Source: Scenedesmus sp. PABB004
Taxonomy: Eukaryota
DNA length: 59,475 nucleotides
NCBI GenBank assembly: GCA_014905635.1
Contig: JABVCE010000019.1
Span: 682,001-741,475, forward strand
Direction of reading: 5' to 3'
Shown here: piece by piece, positions 777 through 11,333 of the stretch
Layout of the letters: the number at the start of each line of letters is the position of its first letter
Numbering within the stretch: the first letter of the stretch is position 1
Program-made: the position numbers and the translations under genes
The notes under the pieces: model-generated
Told to the model about the DNA's origin: nothing
Databases searched by the model: none
The model's input: the letters and a program-made list of their open reading frames with translations, nothing else

Positions 777-3700
777 ATGCTGCAGCGGCAGCAGCAGCGG
801 TGGCAGCAGCGGCGGCGCGGCGCGGCGCCGCCCGCGGCGCGCCCCTGCTGGGGGCTCATTCGCCCGCCGCGAGCAGTCCAGGCGGCGGCGCGCAGCACGG
901 AGCGCGCGGAGGGCGAGCTGCAGGTGCGGCGGCGAGAGCGCGGCAGCACGCGGCGACCTGATCGGCCGGCCGCTCGCGAGATCGCGCGCCGCACCCGCGC
1001 CGCCGCACCCGGCGCGCAGGTGTCGCGCGTCAGCAACAGCGGCGGCAGCCGCAAGGCGTTCAGCGAGGTGCGCGCGCGCCGTGCCGCGCCGCGCGCCGTG
1101 CCGCGCCGCGCGCCGTGCCGCGCCGCGCGCCGTGCCGCGCCGCGCGCCGTGCCGCGCCGCGCGCCGTGCCGCGCCGCGCGCCGTGCCGCGCCGCCCCCTC
1201 ACGCCGCGCGCTGCGGCGGCGCGGCGTCCCCGGCAGGCCTTCTGCCGGCTGACGGGGCTGACCACGTCCCCCGTGGTCGAGATCACGCCCGAGGCGCTCG
1301 CGGCGGCGCCGTACCCGCGCTACACGCCGCCGCTGTCAGACGTCGCCGTGCGTGCCCGCCCGCGCGCTCGGGAGCCCGCACGCGCGCCCCGCCGCACCCC
1401 ACACTTGCACCCCTCCCGCCCCGCGCGCACGCTCGCTCACACGCGCGCACTGGCACACACACAACGCGCGCGCGCAGGTGCAGCAGAAGCGCCCGTACTG
1501 GGGCGGCGGCCGCGGCTACACCGACACAGACGTCGGCTACCTGGCCTTCTTTGGCGCCATGCACGCCATTGCCCTCGTCGGCGCGCCGCTCACGGCGTCG
1601 TGGGACTGCGCGCGCCTGCTGCTCGCCGGGTGCGGCGACGGGCCGCGGCACGGGGACGGCCGCGCGCGCGCGCGCGCGCGGGGGGCCTCCCGCCCCGCTC
1701 TTGCCCACAGCCGGCCATGCTGCCCCCCCCCCCCCCATACACACACACACACACACACCGCTCGCCCCCACCCGCTCCCCCGTCCACGCCCGACCCTAAA
1801 CCCCCGCCCGCAGCTACGTTGTGACTGGGTGCCTCGGTGTGAGCCTGAGCTACCACCGCCAGCTCAGCCACAAGGCCTTCCGCTGCCCCAAGGTGACGCG
1901 CAGCGGCACGGGCCGCGCGGGCCGCGCGGGCGGCGCGGACAGCCGCAGGGGCCGCCGGGCTCGCGGGGCGCCGCCAGCTCGATCACTCCGGGAGGGACCG
2001 CTGGCGCCCCCGGGGGCGGATGTGAGCGGGCCCGCCCACATCCGTTTGCACGTGCGCTCACACTCCCGCGCTCGCGCTCCCTCCCGCGCTGTCACTCCCA
2101 CCCGCGCTGTCACCCTCTCATCCCCCCCCCAGTGGCTAGAGTACGGCCTGTCCTACTGCGGCGCGCTGGCGTTTGAGGGCGACCCCGTGGAGTGGGCCAA
2201 GATGCACACCTGGTGCGCGGGGGGGGGGGGGGGGCAGGGCTCAGGGGCGCCGGGGCTCAACGCGGAGGGCGGCTCAGGGCTTGGGGTTGGGGCTCGAGGC
2301 AGGCTCCAGGAGGGCGCGGCGCCTGCCACCCACAAGGGCGCTCGCGCCTCGCGCCGCGCTCCGACGCCGCACCGCCGTGCCGCGTGCCGCTGCGCCGCCA
2401 CACCGCGCCGCCGCGCTCGCCAGGCACCACCAGCACTCGGACACGGCCGCCGACCGGCACTCGCCGCGCGACGGCCTCTGGCACTCCCAGATGGGCTGGC
2501 TGTTTGACGAGAGCCTGACCAACACACGGTGTGTGTGTGTGTGGGGGGGGGGGTCCGGCTGGGCGGAGGGCTCGTGCGCGGGCGCCTGCGCCCAGCGCGC
2601 GCACGCGCGTGCCTCCCTTGACCGCCTCTCCCTCCCGCCGCTCGCCCACCTCCGCCCGCCCTCCCCGTCATGCGCCGCGCCGCGCAGGCGCGACGCGAGC
2701 GGCGCAGGCAAGGAGTCGCTCGCGGCGCCGTGGTTTTACGCCGAGTCGCCGGGGTTTTACGGCTGGCTGCGAGAGACCTACATGTACCACATGCTCGCCC
2801 AGGTGCTAGGGTTCAGGGTTAAGACCCTGCGCGCCGCACGGCCGGCCGCGCCGCGCGTCGTCCCCGCGGGGCGCGGCGCGCGCGGCCGGCAGTCACGTGG
2901 CCCGCCCAGCCGCCGCGGCGCCGGGGCCTGCCGCCGCGCCGCCGCCGCCGCGCCCGCGCTCGTGCTCAACCCCGCGCCTGCGCCTCCCTGCCTGCCCCCC
3001 GCCCCCAGGCGCTGTTCTTCCTGGCCTGGGGCGGCGTGCCGTACTTCATCTGGGGCTTTGTGCTGCGCGTGCTGGTCACCATGCACATGACCTGGTGCGC
3101 CGAGGGTTCAGCCCCCCCCCCCCTAAACCCCACCTGCCTCGCTCCAGCGGGCCGCGCGCCACGCCGGCAGCCCCGGCAGGCCCGCGTGGCGCGCGCGCCG
3201 CGCCGCCCCTCGGCGGCGCGAGCGCGGCGCCCCGCCTACGCGCTCCCCCCGCCGCCGCGGCGCAGGCTCGTCAACAGCGCGGTGCACGTGTGGGGCGACC
3301 AGCCGTTTGCCACGGGCGACGAGTGAGCGCGCGGCTGCCGCGCGGCCCCAGGCACTGCCAGCGGGCATGGGCACAGCCCAGGCCCGGCCCGCGCGCCGAG
3401 CTCGGTCTGTGCCTGCGGTGTGCGCCTGCGGCCCTGGAGCCCTGACGCCCGCCCCGCCCGCCGCGCGGCGCCGCAGCTCGCGCAACAACGCGGTCGTCGC
3501 GCTCCTCGTCTTTGGCGACGGCTGGTGCGCCGCGCGGCGCGGCGCGCGCGTCGCGCCGTGCACGCGCGGCACGTGCCGCGCCGTGCCGCGCCGACGCATG
3601 GCGCGGCGCCGCGCCCCCCCCCCCCCCCCCCCCCCGTCGCGGCGCAGGCACAACAACCACCATGCCTTCCCCAGCTCCGCCGCGCACGGCCTGGAGTGGT

Positions 3701-3946
3701 GGCAGGTTGACGCCTCATACGCCATCATACGGTGAGACCCTGAGGCCCCTTGCCCGCGCGGCGGGCCGGCTCACCCAGCTGGGCCGGGCTGCCCCAGTGC
3801 CCCCCCCCCCTCCCACACTCCCGCGCTGCCGCCCCGCCGCCCCCGCGCCGCCGGCTGCACCACGCAGCGCGCTGGAGGCGGTGGGCCTCGCGTGGGACGT
3901 GCGGCGGCCGACCGCGGCGCAGATGGCGCGGCTGCGGCGCAACTGA
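777..3946 (+). CDS. Acyl-lipid desaturase, delta-9-like ADS/FAD5 family, probably plastid-targeted (multi-exon)
   Basis: Joined exons give three His boxes (SYHRQLSH, MHTWHH across a splice junction, GWHNNHHAFP) plus HSPRDGLWHSQMGWLF, LVNSAVHVWG and SRNN. The Arg/Ala-rich N-terminus from ATG 777 is transit-like (start inferred). Stop TGA ends at 3946. Confidence 0.9.
1078..1193. repeat. 17-bp intronic minisatellite (GCCGTGCCGCGCCGCGC), about 7 copies
   Basis: Directly visible tandem array filling most of a desaturase intron. Confidence 0.9.
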
Positions 3947-4530: not shown

Positions 4531-6490
4531 TCAGCCCTGCTGGTGGGTCGCGTGGTTGTCGGTCTTGACGGGCGCGGGCGCGGGCGCGGTGGCCACGGCC
4601 TGGCGGGGCGCGCCCGCCACGAGGACGCCGGTCCCGTGCGACACGCCGGCGGGCGCCGCGATGAGGCGGGCGGTGCCGCTGCCGACGGTGCCGGCCTTGG
4701 CGGTGGCGCGCGGGTCGGCGGCGGACGCGACGGCCTGGTTGATGGCCTTGGCGGTCTGCTGCTGGCTGATGGTCGCGCGCGCGCCCTGGGAGCCCTGGTT
4801 GCGAGCCTGCGCGGCGAGCGCCAGGAGCAGGGGCGGAGGTGGTGTTAGGCAAGGCAGCAGGGGTGGCAGGCATGCAGCCCCGCACAGTGGCGCGGCGCAC
4901 GAGCGGCTCTGATCTGAGCGCACGGGCGGGCCAAAAGCGAAGCGAACCGCGCCACGACGCAGGGACAGCACGCACCTGGAGCAGGTGGCGACCCGTGGTG
5001 GGGCGGGGCGCGGGCGCGGTGGCCACGGCCTGGCGGGGCGCGCCCGTCACGAGCACACCGGTCTGGGGCGTCAGGCCGGCGGGCGCCGCGATGGTGCGGG
5101 CGGTGCCGGTACCGACAGCGCCGGCCACGGTGGTGGCGCGCGGGTTGGCGGCGGACTTGACGGCCTGGTTGATGGCCTTGGCGGTCTGCTGCTGGCTGAT
5201 GGTCGCGCGCGCGCCCTGGGCGCCCTGGTTGCGAGCCTGCGCGGCGAGCACCAGGAGCAGGGGCGGAGGTGGGGTCAGGCCAAGCAGCGTGGGTTGGTGT
5301 GCCGGTGTGCAGCCACGCGCGAGCGGCTCTGATCTGAGCGCACGGGCGGGCCAAAAGCGAAGCGAACCGCGCCACGACGCAGGGACAGCACGCACCTGAA
5401 GCAGGTGGCGACCCGTGGTGGGGCGGGGCGCGGGCGCGGTGGCCACGGCCTGGCGGGGCGCGCCCGTCACGAGCACACCGGTCTGGGGCGTCAGGCCGGC
5501 GGGCGCCGCGATGGTGCGGGCGGTGCCGGTACCGACAGCGCCGGCCACGGTGGTGGCGCGCGGGTTGGCGGCGGACTTGACGGCCTGGTTGATGGCCTTG
5601 GCGGTCTGCTGCTGGCTGATGGTCGCGCGCGCGCCCTGGGCGCCCTGGTTGCGAGCCTGCGCGGCGAGCACCAGGAGCAGGGGCGGAGGTGGGGTCAGGC
5701 CAAGCAGCGTGGGTTGGTGTGCCGGTGTGCAGCCACGCGCGAGCGGCTCTGATCTGAGCGCACGGGCGGGCCAAAAGCGAAGCGAACCGCGCCACGACGC
5801 AGGGACAGCACGCACCTGGAGCAGGTGGCGACCCGTGGTGGGGCGGGGCGCGGGCGCGGTGGCCACGGCCTGGCGGGGCGCGCCCGTCACGAGCACACCG
5901 GTCTGGGGCGTCAGGCCGGCGGGCGCCGCGATGGTGCGGGCGGTGCCGGTACCGACAGCGCCGGCCACGGTGGTGGCGCGCGGGTTGGCGGCGGACTTGA
6001 CGGCCTGGTTGATGGCCTTGGCAGTCTGCTGCTGGCTGATGGTCGCGCGCGCGCCCTGGGCGCCCTGGTTGCGAGCCTGCGCGGCGAGAGAGAGAGGGGG
6101 GCTGCTGGTCACAAGGCGGCGGCCGGCGCGCAACGAAAAGGGCGCCGCGGCTGCCCGCCTCGGTCGCGACCGTCGCGCACCTGGAGCAGCTGCCTCACGC
6201 CGGCCCCTGCGAGGCGAGCGGGCGGATGCGCAGGCGCGCGTGAGGCCGCGATGCCGCCGGCACGCCCGGCGCGCGTGGACAGGCCCAAACGGCGCGCAGA
6301 GGGCTGAACGTGATACCACCTGCGCCATGCATGTCTCCGGCGTGCCGCGGCTGGCGTGGACGCCCCTGGCGGCGCGCAGCGGCCGCGCATCCACATGCGT
6401 GCCCCGAGTACACCCGCGCGCACCGTCAAACGCAGCCTGCGCGCTGCCCACGAGCACCATAACGGCCAGAAGACCGATCAGGCGGGCCAT
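4531..6490 (-). CDS. Secreted tandem-repeat polyprotein, about 383 aa: signal peptide plus 4 units, each preceded by RxLLQ
   Basis: Exons 6490-6424, 6206-6181, 6076-5816, 5656-5396, 5236-4976 and 4806-4531, all GT-AG. Translation is MARLIGLLAVMVLVGSAQAAFDGAGVRQLLQ, then three identical 87-aa units (ARNQGAQGARATISQQQTAKAINQAV...PTTGRHLLQ), then a diverged unit ending HATHQQG*. Confidence 0.85.
4900..6087. repeat. 420-bp tandem repeat (261-bp exon plus 159-bp intron), about 2.8 near-identical copies, with a diverged exon copy at 4531-4806
   Basis: The sequence lines starting at 4981, 5401 and 5821 are identical at 420-bp spacing. Only isolated substitutions are seen, e.g. at 5399 and 6023. Confidence 0.95.
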
Positions 6491-6906
6491 CGTTGCTGAG
6501 ACGCGAGGCGGCGGGGCAGGCTGGTGCCGAGGCGGCCGCGGGCGCGCGTGAGCACGGAAAGCGGCCGCGTTGAGCCGGCGAACGCGTAGAGTGGGCGTGC
6601 CCGAGGCCGCACGGCGAGTACCACAGCCACTGGATCGCCGACGCCCACGATTCCGTCCGCTTCGAAACCTCGCCGGTGACAACGGATGATTGCGCCCTTT
6701 CCGCGTGCGCGGGCGCCCCCAAGACGTGCGGCATCGTCAGGAGCCAAACGCGCCGTGCGCGGTGGGTTCCTCTTGCCTCTGCACGCCGGCAGGGGCCTCG
6801 CATCGCACCCGAGTTCGCCGCGCTGTCTGCGCCTCATTTTATCGTCCGCGCCCGGCGCCGCCCACAAATCTGCCCAGACCGCAAGACCCGTGACACCGGA
6901 AGCGCA

Positions 6907-9375
6907 ATGAGGCCGTTCACGCTCCTGTGCTTGCTGTTCGTGGCTGCCGGCGTGGTGCGTGGCCAGCGCCCGGCGGCTCACGATCGCGATGCTCAGAGCC
7001 GTCCGTCGCAGCGGCGGAGGCCCCGTCTCGTGGCTGCAGCGGCCGCGCGCGGCTGCCCGGTGCACGCACGGCGGCACGCCACGCGCCCGCCGCCGCGCAC
7101 TCCCGCCGCAGGCCCGCGCGGCCGACGCGCCGCTGGCCAAGGGCCTCGCCGGCGACCCCGACACGCGGCTGTGGGCGCGGCTCATGGACGCGCTCGGCGT
7201 GCGCGCCGACGCGGCGGCGACGTACGCCACGCTCCTCACGCCCACCGACCAGGCGGTCTCGTCGTTCCTCTTCGAGATGGGCCTCACATTCGACGACCTC
7301 CTCGCGCCCGGGCGCCGCGTGCTGGTGCGGCGCCGCGCCCGCGCCCGCGCGGGCGGGGTAGGCTGGGGCTGGGCCTGAGCGCCGGGGCCGAGCGCGCACC
7401 AGCCACCTCACGTGCGCCGCCGGCCGCCGCAGGTGGACGCGCTGCTGTCGTACCACCTCGTGCCGGGCGTGGCGATCACCGACTGGCGCCGCGCCGACCC
7501 GCGCCAGCCGGGGCGCCCCCTCATCTCCGGCGACCCAGCCGCGCCAACCCAGATGACCACCGGTGGGCCGCGACGGCGGCAGCGCTCGGCGAGGCCGGCG
7601 CGCGGCCGCCGGCGCGGCGGCCAGCCCTCGCGCGCCCGCGCCCGCCCACGCGCCCGCGCCCGCGCCCGAGCGCGCCCCGCCCCGGCCGCGGCCGCGCGCG
7701 CCGCAGGCGACGTGGACGCGCTGCTGGGCGCGTACGTATCGCCCGTCACGGGCCTGGTCACCCTGCTGGACGCGCAGGGTAACCGCGCCGTGGTCGTGGG
7801 CCCGCCGCGCCGCGAGGTGCGGCGCGGGGGTCACGCTGCCCCCACCGGCGGCCGGGGCAGGCGACATCGGCGCCCCCCCCCCCCCCCCCCAAAAAAACCC
7901 GCCGGGGCAGACCGCCCCAGCCCGCAGCCCTGTCCCACACCCGACCCCTGCCCCGCCCGCGGCGCCGCAGGGCAACCTGGTCTTCCACGACGTCAGCGCG
8001 GTGCTCATGTCCTGGTCGTACTTCTTCAACGCCGTCGACGCGCTGCGCGCCTACCCCCAGGTGGGTGGGCTGCGGCTGCCAAGTGCTTTTACCAGGCTGC
8101 GCAGGCCCTCCGGCTGGCGCCGGGGGGGGGGGGGGTGTTCCGCCGCGCTCCGGGCGCCCGGGCGCGGCACGCGGGAGGCGCGCGCCGGGCGCGCCGGCGG
8201 CGGCTCACGCGCCCGCCGCGCCGCGCGGCCGCAGTGGAGCGGCGCGTCGGGCCTGCTCGCCAAGGCCGCGCTCGTGTCGCCGCCGCTCGCGGACAGCCTG
8301 ATCGGCAAGAGCGAGGCGACGTTCCTCTTCCCCAGCAACGACGCGCTCGAGGCCGACGGCTACGCGCGCCGCCTCGCGTCCGCGCCCTCCGCCCAGGCGC
8401 GGCAGCGGCGCGGCCGCGCGGCCGCGCGGCCGCGCGCGCCGGCGCTGCCCGCCCGGCCGCCCGGCTGCCCTGGCCGCCCCGGTGCAGCGTCCCACGCGCG
8501 CCCGCCTTGAACCTTGAACCTGCCCTCCCCCGCCCCGCCCCTCCCCGCAGCTCGCGGCGCTGATGTCGTACCACGTGCTGCCCGGGCTGCGCCCCGTGCC
8601 GGGCGGCTGGCCCGCCGGCGCGACGGCGCAGACGCTGCTCTCCGGTCGCAGCATCACCGCCGCGCTCTCGACGTCGTGAGCGCGCCGCGCGCCGCGCCGC
8701 GCGCCGCGCCGCGCGCGCCCGCCCCCGGCGGCCGGCTGCAGCGCCGCGGCGCCAGCAGCCCAGCCCTCACCGCGCCGCCGCCGCCGCGCCAGCGCCGCGG
8801 TCGACCCCTACTCCGGCGCGGCTGAGCGCGCGCCGCTGGTGACGCTGCGCGGCGACGGCGGGCCGCGCACCGCCAACGTGACGGTCATGAACATCTACGC
8901 CGGCAAGGTGGGGCGAGGCTCTGGGGCTTGGGTTTAGGGGTTCAGGGAGTTCAGGAGGAGGGGCTAAGGGAGGGGCTGCCGAGAGCGCGCAGCGCGGGCG
9001 CGAGGCGCCGCGGACGCGCGCGGCGCGATCAGCGAGGCCCGCCGCGTCCGCCGCCGCGTCCGCCCGCCGCAGTCGATCGTGCAGGGCATCAACAACATTC
9101 TCCGCCCCAACGACGCCGCGCTGGCGCCGCTGTTCAGCGGCGGCGGCGCCGCGCCCGCGTCGGGCCAGGCCGGCCGGCACCTGCTGCAGCGCCACCGCGG
9201 CGGCGGCGCGGCGCGCTCGCACGCCAACAACTGGGGCGCCCAGAACACGCAGCGCGCGATCCGCGCCGCGGCGCGCGGCGACATCCCGGTCTCGTATGCG
9301 ACGCGCGCGGGCAGCCGCAACGCGCAGCTCGCGCGCGGCGGGTGCGCCAACTGCTGGCGCTGGGGCGCGTGGTGA
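6907..9375 (+). CDS. Secreted protein with two fasciclin (FAS1) domains and an RHLLQ-delimited C-terminal module (multi-exon)
   Basis: Signal peptide MRPFTLLCLLFVAAGV. FAS1 H1, YH and H2 motifs occur twice: TLLTPTDQA, LLSYHLVPG, VFHDVSAVL and TFLFPSNDA, LMSYHVLPG, IVQGINNILRP. Stop TGA ends at 9375. Confidence 0.85.
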
Positions 9376-9803
9376 GCGGGCGCCGCGCGCAGGGGCCACC
9401 ATTGAACAGAAGGCGGGCCCTGGCCACCCAGGGCTGAGACGGACCACGCTACGCGCGGCTTGAGCGCCGAACCTCGCGACGGCGGGCGTTGGGGGCGTGG
9501 GCGTGCATGGGGCGCGTTGCGTGCGCTCAAACGCATGGGTTGGGCGGGTCCGAGCGCGCAGGCGCGGGACCGTTTGGCGTGCGAGGGCGTCGCCGCGATG
9601 CACGGCACCACCAGACGTCTAACGAGCCATGCGAGGCGGGTCTGCATCGCTTCAAAGCGGGTTGATATTGCTTGTGCGCGCCGCTCAAGTGGCGACGCTG
9701 ACGTAACAAGCTCGTTCGTCGCGCCCGGCTCCCCGCCCGCCCGGGCCCCGCCATACTGTTGAACCGCAAACTAGCATTAGAGGTGGGCGAGGGTCGACCG
9801 GCG

Positions 9804-11333
9804 ATGGCCGTGGGGCGCTGGTGTTGCCATGAGCTCCCGCAAGAACGCGGCGACCATCCTGCTGGTGAGCATGGGCACCTGCTGGACCAGCTGCAGGTCG
9901 GCGTCCAGCCGGTCGGCGTCCAGCCGTCGCCGGGCGGCGCCGCCCACCGCCCGCCGCTGCTGCTCGCCGGTGCCGCCGCTGCTGCTGCGGCCGCCCCGCA
10001 GCTTCAGCGCAAGGCGTCGCGCCTGCGGTCCGCCATCCGCGCGCTGGAGCGGGAGCGGGAGCAGCTGGCCGTGCGCGCTGAGGTGGTGGACCTCCTGGTG
10101 CAGCACCAAGACGCGATCGCGCAGTGAGCAGGCTGCCTGCCGGCGGCGGGCCGCGGCACGGGCCGCCAGCCTGCCTGCCGCCGAGCGCCGCCTGCCGCGC
10201 GCCTGACGGCGGCCCGGCCGGCCGCCCGCCCGCCCGCGCGCAGCGCGCTGCGCCGCCTCGTGTCGCGCGCCAGCGGCGGCGGGGTCGCCGGCGACTCCTG
10301 CGACGCGTGCCCGCCGTTTGCGAGCCTCGAGGACGACACGGGGCTCGTCACGCCGGCGCTGCGCGCGTGGCCGCTGCTGGACCGCCTGCAGCGCCTCGAC
10401 CTGTCGCCCTTTGCCTGGCTCGCGTCCGCGCGCCCCGCCGACGCGGCGGCCGCGTGCGCGGCCGCGCTCTCGCCGCTGCCGGGCCTGCTCGCGGCGGCGC
10501 GCGCGGGCGGCGACGCCGGTGCGCCGGACGGCGCGGCGCGGCGCGCGCTGGACGGCGCGGTCGTGGGCGTTCTGCACCTGACCAAGGCAATGTACCTCCT
10601 CGCACCCCACCTCGCGCACAGCATGAACGGGCTCAACCTGCTCACGCGCGCGCGCGAGGCGCCGCCGCCGGGGCACTGGGCGGCCGCGATGGCGGCGGCG
10701 CGCGTGACGGCGGGCCAGGCGCGCGTGATGACGGGCGTGCTGGCGCTCGTCGTGCCGGCCATGGACGCGCTCGAGGCGGAGCGGGCCGCGCTGGCAGACG
10801 CCATCGCGGCGACGCACGAGCCCAGCCTCGCGGCGCAGCAGCAGCAGGCACAGGCAGCGCGCGGCGGAGAAGCGTCGGCGGCGCCGGCGCAGGCCGCGCC
10901 GCGCGTGCGGACGCGCCGCGCCGCGGCCGCCGCCGAGGCGGCAGAGGCGGCGGGGGCGGCAGCGCACACCTGTTCGGCGAGTCCCCGGGGCGGGCCGGGT
11001 GGGCGGCCCGCGTCGCCCGCCGCCAGCACAGGCAGCACCCGCGATGGCGCGGCTGCCGGCGAGGCCCCGCGCCGCGCGCCGCCGCCGCCGGTGGCGGCGT
11101 GCCGCGACGCGGTCGGCGAGATGTGCCGCTGGCTGCTGGCGTGGCGCACGCTCAGCGGCGCGCGCAGCGCGGTCACGTACGCGCTGGACTCGGAGCAGCT
11201 CGCGGCGGTGCTGGTCGCGAGCCTGCCGTACTTGCCGGCCACGTCGATGATGTGTGACTTCCTGCCAAGCGCGGAGCTGGAGCCACGACCAGGGGCGGCG
11301 ACCAGGGGCGGGGCGGCGGCGGGCGGCTGCTGA
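9804..11333 (+). CDS. Uncharacterised protein with an N-terminal basic/coiled-coil (bZIP-like) segment, 2 exons
   Basis: Exons 9804-10123 and 10244-11333 join in frame via a GT-AG intron (DAIAH-ALRRLVSR). Heptad-like segment QRKASRLRSAIRALEREREQLAVRAEVVDLL. Function not recognised and start codon inferred. Confidence 0.55.

Follow-up and report, generated by a model that had tools for sequence, protein, structure and literature searches.

The stretch analysed here (the window) comprises 59,475 nucleotides of Scenedesmus sp. PABB004 and has a GC content of ~78%. It contains a polyprotein gene on the minus strand and a gene for a protein with two fasciclin (FAS1) domains on the plus strand, arranged head-to-head with a gap of 416 bp between the ATGs at 6490 (-) and 6907 (+). 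These start positions agree with those of a first-pass annotation made from the sequence, and the Scenedesmus sp. PABB004 proteins HT031_005155 and HT031_005156 are the products encoded here. The two-FAS1 protein ends in a short tail behind an RHLL site. Sequence comparison places this tail in a real and so far undescribed module family, whose members almost certainly occur both fused to FAS1 proteins and as free multicopy units; the adjacent polyprotein very probably belongs to the same family. The features of the locus are as follows.

4531..6490, minus strand: polyprotein gene HT031_005155, 383 amino acids (aa), with a signal peptide, an RQLL site and four units of 87-92 aa (translation; NCBI model; hydrophobic N-terminus)
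6490-6424, 6206-6181, 6076-5816, 5656-5396, 5236-4976 and 4806-4531, minus strand: exons of the polyprotein gene
6184..6195, minus strand: RQLL, the first of the RxLL sites, carried by a 26-nt exon directly after the signal peptide
5924..6052, minus strand: putative module copy 1, with a Pro/Thr/Ala-rich stretch behind it
5819..5830, minus strand: RHLL site 2, with a phase-0 intron after the next codon (Q)
5504..5632, minus strand: putative module copy 2
5399..5410, minus strand: RHLL site 3
5084..5212, minus strand: putative module copy 3
4979..4990, minus strand: RHLL site 4
4654..4782, minus strand: putative module copy 4, diverged, its exon identical to the others at 219-220/261 nt
4570..6088, no strand: tandem repeat (exon plus intron) of 420 bp, 3.6 copies, 95% matches
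6491..6906, no strand: divergent intergenic region of 416 bp, a putative shared promoter
6907..9375, plus strand: two-FAS1 gene, 431 aa (translation, Pfam, fold)
6907-6954, 7112-7324, 7433-7562, 7707-7816, 7971-8060, 8235-8396 (GC donor), 8551-8675, 8793-8907 and 9073-9375, plus strand: exons of the two-FAS1 gene
9175..9186, plus strand: RHLL site dividing the FAS1 pair from the tail
9223..9336, plus strand: tail module core, predicted with low confidence as a helix-G-x-I-P-helix hairpin
9343..9354, plus strand: CxNC motif, found in 31/32 FAS1-type tails and in none of the free units

The minus-strand gene has six exons, whose splice sites are AG acceptors and GT donors, and translates into a 383-aa product (labelled P0008), identical to the NCBI model HT031_005155. 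Its units of 87, 87, 87 and 92 aa are separated by GRHLL, and each is encoded by one exon, with a phase-0 intron right behind the site. Units 1-3 have the same protein sequence, and the five modules counted across the two genes by the first-pass annotation therefore represent only three different sequences. The first three unit exons are identical to one another at 259-260/261 nt, and the repeat introns 5237-5395 and 5657-5815 match at 159/159 nt. Given this near-identity of exons and introns, the array could be very recent, homogenised or a product of assembly, and the number of copies could hinge on the assembly. A Pfam match of the polyprotein to PLipase_C_C (24.9 bits versus 24.4) was read as compositional and rejected, as no stretch passes alone.

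The plus-strand gene yields 431 aa from nine exons. The protein begins with a signal-like segment and continues with two FAS1 domains; RHLL occupies residues 366-369, and the last 62 aa form a tail with an isoelectric point (pI) of 12. This agrees with the earlier reading of a FAS1 gene ending in GRHLLQ plus the tail. Intron 6 (8397-8550, +) opens with GC instead of GT; the public protein has the same sequence at this junction. The FAS1 assignment follows from a Pfam PF02469 match of 37.2 bits against a curated cut-off of 22 (P0004), which places the protein in the FAS1 superfamily, and from the fold. The model of the orthologue from Tetradesmus obliquus (predicted local distance difference test score, pLDDT, 76; predicted template modelling score, pTM, 0.75) matches FAS1 structures, and Foldseek retrieved periostin, TGFBI and fasciclin I at E 3e-12 to 7e-12. 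The H1/H2 motifs and the YH dyad are also present, as PTD/PSN and two YH at residues 60, 94, 230 and 258. By sequence and predicted fold, the product is a bona fide two-domain fasciclin and a putative adhesion protein. A hydrophobic C-terminal anchor is absent (maximum 15-residue hydropathy 0.37).

The NCBI model HT031_005156 is 844 aa long and continues into the next gene (9376-11333, +). It was rejected in favour of the 431-aa model because homologous tails stop soon after CxNC. The next gene contains a coiled-coil-like exon, and no Pfam family was matched at E < 0.03.

The tail module, fused and free

A four-sequence tail profile was run against 1.84 billion representatives with an E cut-off of 0.001. 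It returned 36 matches, comprising 31 tails, two signal-peptide polyproteins (P0038 and P0039) and three unrelated repeat proteins (P0018, P0019 and P0042), which were removed. A FAS1 C-terminal stretch was recognised upstream of 22/31 tails (single-comparison P < 0.012), and two weaker cases in the same place bring this to 24/31. The other seven are fragments that give no information; among these, P0026 joins the tail module to an upstream bacterial IclR match on a 970-bp contig and is probably a chimeric record. Those relatives that have a species name belong to Tetradesmus obliquus and Hariotina reticulata; Scenedesmus, Tetradesmus and Hariotina are all members of the Scenedesmaceae.

A set of 32 tails, made up of 29 profile matches together with P0003, P0005 and P0006, gave the consensus N-T-x2-A-I-x-A3-x-G-x-I-P-x-S-Y-A-T-x2-G within a module core of ~45 residues. 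The N, the P and the last G are invariant though they were never used as anchors, and many of the conserved positions hold Ala, Gly or Thr. The only FAS1-type tail lacking CxNC is P0040. An RxL(L/M/Q) site lies upstream in 27/32 tails, and the five without it are short fragments. The tails are strongly basic (pI 11-12 in 7/7), and the FAS1 bodies are acidic in 5/7 and cysteine-free in 7/7.

No Pfam family was found for the window tail, and the few weak matches on its relatives do not describe the module. A structure search with the tail model was uninformative, its best hits being generic hairpins (Z up to 6.2), and the homodimer prediction scored 0.00 with the alignment not used. The ESM Atlas held no usable feature match for the tail or the polyprotein, and its structure rows stayed at TM < 0.4. 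In metagenome scans, pattern matches were confirmed in 0/598 cases for the polyprotein and 0/214 for the tail, and in 0/99 viral contigs. No description of the module was found in the literature, mostly that outside subscription journals. On sequence grounds, the tail is a real module family that is undescribed and unnamed.

The two polyproteins recovered by the profile, P0038 and P0039, start with a signal peptide and carry their units behind RxLL-like sites. The tail profile matches these units at an HH probability of 96%. All three P0039 units beat 2000/2000 shuffles under three null models, including one with the first helix fixed, and they score 94-106 against their own two best-matching tails. 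Unit 1 of P0038 also beats 2000/2000 shuffles with the helix fixed; its other three units are weaker (43-76 of 2000 shuffles as good). Throughout the free units the cysteine pair is lost and the pI ranges from 5 to 12. The P0039 cluster includes named Tetradesmus obliquus records, and one of its members carries the UniRef name 'SMP domain', which raised the LEA seed maturation protein (SMP) domain, presumably PF04927, as an identity; a Pfam search of 11 proteins gave no SMP match even with E allowed to reach 10, and this candidate was rejected.

A module tree (44 rows, 46 columns) placed the P0039 units among the P0033-35 tails without firm support. A single origin for all free units was not rejected (approximately unbiased test, p-AU 0.44), and independent origins are therefore not claimed. 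The earlier proposal that one module is used both as a fused tail and as a free peptide is clear for P0039 and probable for the window polyprotein. We are nearly certain that the module exists in both forms, and judged from sequence this concept holds independently of the window locus.

Relationship of the window polyprotein to the tail family

The kinship between the two neighbouring genes was originally drawn from an ungapped alignment of 33 columns between the tail and a polyprotein unit. A hand count on the translations reproduced its 10 identities, two K/R matches and offsets of 16 and 14 residues. The claim that this pair stands above chance did not survive: the local score was 36, with shuffle P values of 0.18 (unit shuffled) and 0.05 (tail shuffled), and the composition-shuffle check for unit 4 gave 0.25 and 0.08. 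The second half of the proposed register (T.AG) is probably wrong, since the unit carries a 3-residue insertion when aligned with the family. Cross-recovery by hidden Markov models of the modules failed as well, the first small profiles each missing the other module in the six frames of the window. A three-unit profile search recovered only P0008 and P0009 among 8000 scored candidates, and the tail of the neighbouring gene is not the closest relative of the window units.

The evidence for membership comes from a chain that runs from P0008 through P0009 to P0021. P0009 is the one clear relative of P0008 (E 4e-18). A 32-tail core profile built without the site and the cysteines scored the three units of P0009 above 2000, 1996 and 1998 of 2000 shuffles. 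P0021, the tail of a FAS1 paralogue, bridges to P0009 in BLASTP at E 1e-7 and 4e-5 with the site included. With the site removed, the best-of-32-tail scores of the five distinct units were matched by 6, 7, 19, 0 and 0 of 1000 shuffles. Reversed units scored 26-37 versus 49-73 for the forward units, and local shuffles reached the score in no more than 15/3000 cases. Against P0021, 0/889 natural windows of this DNA reached 61, and the spacing from site to core is 18 in P0021 and in all four window units. Because of this chain, we consider homology of the window polyprotein to the tail family very probable.

Several results weigh against this membership. Direct comparison of tail and unit is not significant (shuffle P 0.05-0.25), and BLASTP aligned only the 6-residue GRHLLQ site between them; composition-adjusted BLASTP of P0021 with a window unit likewise found only the site. 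The 32-tail profile gave the window units P values of only 0.05 and 0.17, and 293 and 339 of 2000 shuffles equalled them when the anchors were fixed. The HH probability of window-type units against tails was 9-23%, a result that 2 and 1 of 300 column shuffles equalled, and profile-profile comparison with untrimmed alignments gave P 0.063. Under best-of-32 scoring, 16/889 natural background windows reached 61 and one reached 73.

An alternative is that the resemblance at the locus is a coincidence: the tail family would be real and the polyprotein an unrelated Ala-rich secreted repeat that has just a generic subtilase site and one amphipathic helix in common with it, the layout being incidental. 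The negative shuffles, the failed cross-recovery by small profiles and both BLASTP comparisons agree with it, as do the 3-residue gap and the missing CxNC in the units. With helix 1 fixed, 1234 and 1187 of 2000 shuffles equalled the window units. RxLLQ is presumably also common in green-algal secreted proteins. However, the P0009-P0021 match at E 1e-7 spans both helices, reversed units fall below the forward scores, locally shuffled ones seldom reach them, and the free form exists in other polyproteins. We therefore regard such a coincidence as improbable, the least probable of the explanations weighed here, and retain homology.

That two members of a small family lie side by side may point to a local duplication or to co-regulation; divergent orientation by itself is a common arrangement in compact genomes. 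The FAS1 orthologue and a P0039-type polyprotein, which is of a different type from that of the window, are unlinked in one T. obliquus assembly, where they lie on contigs of 6.75 and 11.14 Mb. No relative of P0008 was found in T. obliquus, which is weak evidence. The accessible part of one expression study (PMC12638912) lists two T. obliquus FAS1 genes (IDs 1731048 and 1739821) that swing widely over the diel cycle under salt, and septins are the strongest annotated members of the table concerned; the FAS1 genes were not mappable to the module family and were not used. Term searches of the available text of PMC11839794 and PMC10762512 found no mention of fasciclins, and that text holds no proteomic data for these proteins.

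Convergent with the polyprotein gene, a further gene lies at ~2100-3946 (+), for which short exon scans gave no Pfam match. Its HNNHH histidine box presumably resembles that of a delta-9-type fatty acid desaturase. The TGTAA polyadenylation signal, which is typical of chlorophytes, was found on neither strand between 3900 and 9900 of the window.

Processing, function and known systems

RxxL/RxLx is a documented cleavage site of AtS1P/SBT6.1 and SBT3.5; according to the available part of PMC13082318, the cut follows the motif in RALF23 (RRIL) and PROSCOOP12 (RRLM). An S1P-like enzyme is reported in Chlamydomonas in the accessible text of PMC6313938. In the proteins studied here, hydrophobic N-termini were seen in 11/11 full-length proteins by a simple hydropathy check rather than a dedicated predictor, and an RxL(L/M/Q) site lies 13-29 residues ahead of each module. 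Cleavage at RxLL is predicted as likely.

The following mechanism is proposed. By analogy with plant biochemistry, an S1P/SBT6.1-like subtilase would cut after RxLL in the secretory pathway. One gene would then give a two-FAS1 protein and one basic 62-aa peptide with a cysteine pair, and the other gene would give four basic, cysteine-free peptides of 87-92 aa. The free forms would be the FAS1 tail module amplified by tandem exon duplication, which is clear for P0039 and probable here, and the tandem copies would raise the peptide dose relative to FAS1. The weakest step is that the released peptide would be the working product; the cargo-free arrays and the strong conservation point to it. The peptide may fold as a helical hairpin and use its invariant Ala/Gly/Thr faces for tight packing against partners; the residues at the conserved positions would fit such packing in an assembly. 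Alongside the FAS1 pair it would serve as a component of the wall or matrix, with the basic forms binding acidic surfaces. A structural extracellular role, rather than one as signal or propeptide, appears to us an evenly balanced proposition. The overall reading of a subtilase-released extracellular peptide that acts as a wall or matrix component and is amplified by polyproteins is offered tentatively, at slightly less than even confidence. Two observations on the peptide count against it: the P0039 unit that was tested is acidic (pI 5.1), so that charge is not a family-wide mechanism, and the tail-only model is a helix-turn-helix hairpin of low confidence (pLDDT 56). The conservation argument is also weakened, as the module exceeds the FAS1 body in 21/21 pairs (medians 53% versus 36%) in a comparison that is biased to the module, the proteins having been found via the module and the module being Ala-rich.

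The same layout could serve a released signal, with the tail as a RALF-like ligand, the FAS1 pair as its carrier or co-receptor and the polyproteins as multicopy hormone precursors. The RALF23 and PROSCOOP12 precursors are laid out in this way in the part of PMC13082318 available, peptidergic signalling exists in Chlamydomonas as far as the available source text describes it, and both the higher conservation of the module and CxNC in 31/32 tails would suit a ligand. The tail and its relatives, however, matched neither RALF nor any other peptide family in Pfam. The free units have no cysteines and a pI of 5 to 12, which is hard to fit to one receptor, and the window units are long (87-92 aa) with Pro/Thr/Ala stretches. 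We consider a signal unlikely.

The first-pass annotation had viewed the module as a tag on cargo proteins. Its nearest equivalent is a propeptide or sorting tag that would chaperone, mask or route the FAS1 pair until it is cut, the free copies modulating in trans or sorting themselves. The tail is nearly confined to a single FAS1 subfamily (24/31 with FAS1 upstream), and a basic tail faces an acidic body in 5/7 proteins. CLEL6 transit also appears to need pre-processing by SBT6.1, according to the accessible portion of PMC13082318. A tag on varied cargo is not borne out: bar the one probably chimeric record, FAS1 is the only recognisable cargo, and a second eukaryotic cargo class was not seen among the 31 tail matches. 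Four polyproteins are made of modules and have no cargo, and the AlphaFold full-length model falls to pLDDT < 50 at residues 353-400, with no confident docking onto FAS1. Cleavage would take the tag off, because the site separates cargo from module, and since the FAS1 bodies are without cysteine (7/7), the tail cannot remain disulphide-linked to them. A lasting tag is unlikely, and we give a transient propeptide or sorting role a similarly small chance.

A broader form of the wall or matrix proposal is that the Scenedesmaceae possess a subtilase-released peptide system of their own, in which flavours of one conserved hairpin, namely the Cys-pair tail on FAS1 and the Cys-free tandem arrays, basic or acidic, would assemble together into a polymer of the wall or of a coenobium glue, and FAS1 adhesins would be recruited by this polymer. 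The head-to-head pair would then be a co-expressed adhesin-plus-polymer unit. This remains a speculative picture, to which we assign a low probability.

The window genes were compared with known systems. The fungal KEX2-processed repeat proteins (KEPs) likewise consist of a signal peptide and tandem units split by a convertase site. The KEX2 site is dibasic, whereas the sites of the window polyprotein are RQLL and RHLL, of S1P type. The window units are also long predicted hairpins, the module occurs additionally on a folded FAS1 pair, and there is no sequence link. Among the KEPs, the Rep1 precursor of Ustilago maydis yields 11 peptides on cleavage, and these form surface fibrils, as given in the accessible parts of PMC3133707, PMC9769878 and PMC6339444. 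The plant precursors processed by S1P/SBT6.1 and SBT3.5 (RALF23, CLEL6 and PROSCOOP12) share an RxxL/RxLx site before a conserved C-terminal peptide, as described in the available text of PMC13082318. A signal peptide with such a site before the peptide was found here as well, in 27/32 tails and before all units. The pro-region here is instead a 345-aa FAS1 pair or further module copies, and there is no known receptor. RALF peptides contain Cys. The genes of the window thus resemble KEPs and plant S1P precursors in their working and lie outside the sequence definition of both.

The two-FAS1 adhesion proteins, such as Volvox Algal-CAM and plant FLAs, share the signal peptide and two FAS1 domains; two-FAS1 CAMs occur in Volvox and plants according to the available part of PMC10147662. 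The window protein differs in ending with an RxLL site and a basic Cys-pair module, with no hydrophobic anchor. The AstaP carotenoproteins are secreted FAS1 proteins of the same algal family (PMC7477208 and PMC10147662, accessible parts) and are the best sequence matches with solved structures (E 6e-4 to 4e-3). The solved pink1 and orange1 chains, however, have 191-207 aa and one FAS1 match, versus 431 aa and two FAS1 domains in the window protein. Structure-based identity is 19-24%, and no module-like tail was matched. The QL pair corresponding to Q56/L57 of AstaP, as described in the available text of PMC10147662, is not kept in a weak phmmer alignment whose register and numbering are unsure. 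AstaP membership was rejected on length, FAS1 count and low identity to the orange1 and pink1 chains; the kinship amounts to general FAS1 similarity, and by sequence AstaP is only a distant relative.

The idea of an undescribed system at this locus therefore stands in part. The module family is real and undescribed, and the precursor architecture is of a known kind, since fungi and plants already provide examples of convertase-cut repeat precursors; nothing shows the system itself to be of a new kind. The analysis also corrects a fused public gene model. If cleavage holds true, a chlorophyte would have a defined set of S1P-type substrates, and the module would make up a new family of secreted peptides with an unusual double use, being attached to an adhesion fold in one case and multiplied within a polyprotein in the other. 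They provide named, testable candidates for wall building or colony adhesion in the Scenedesmaceae, which bears on the flocculation and harvesting of biofuel algae.

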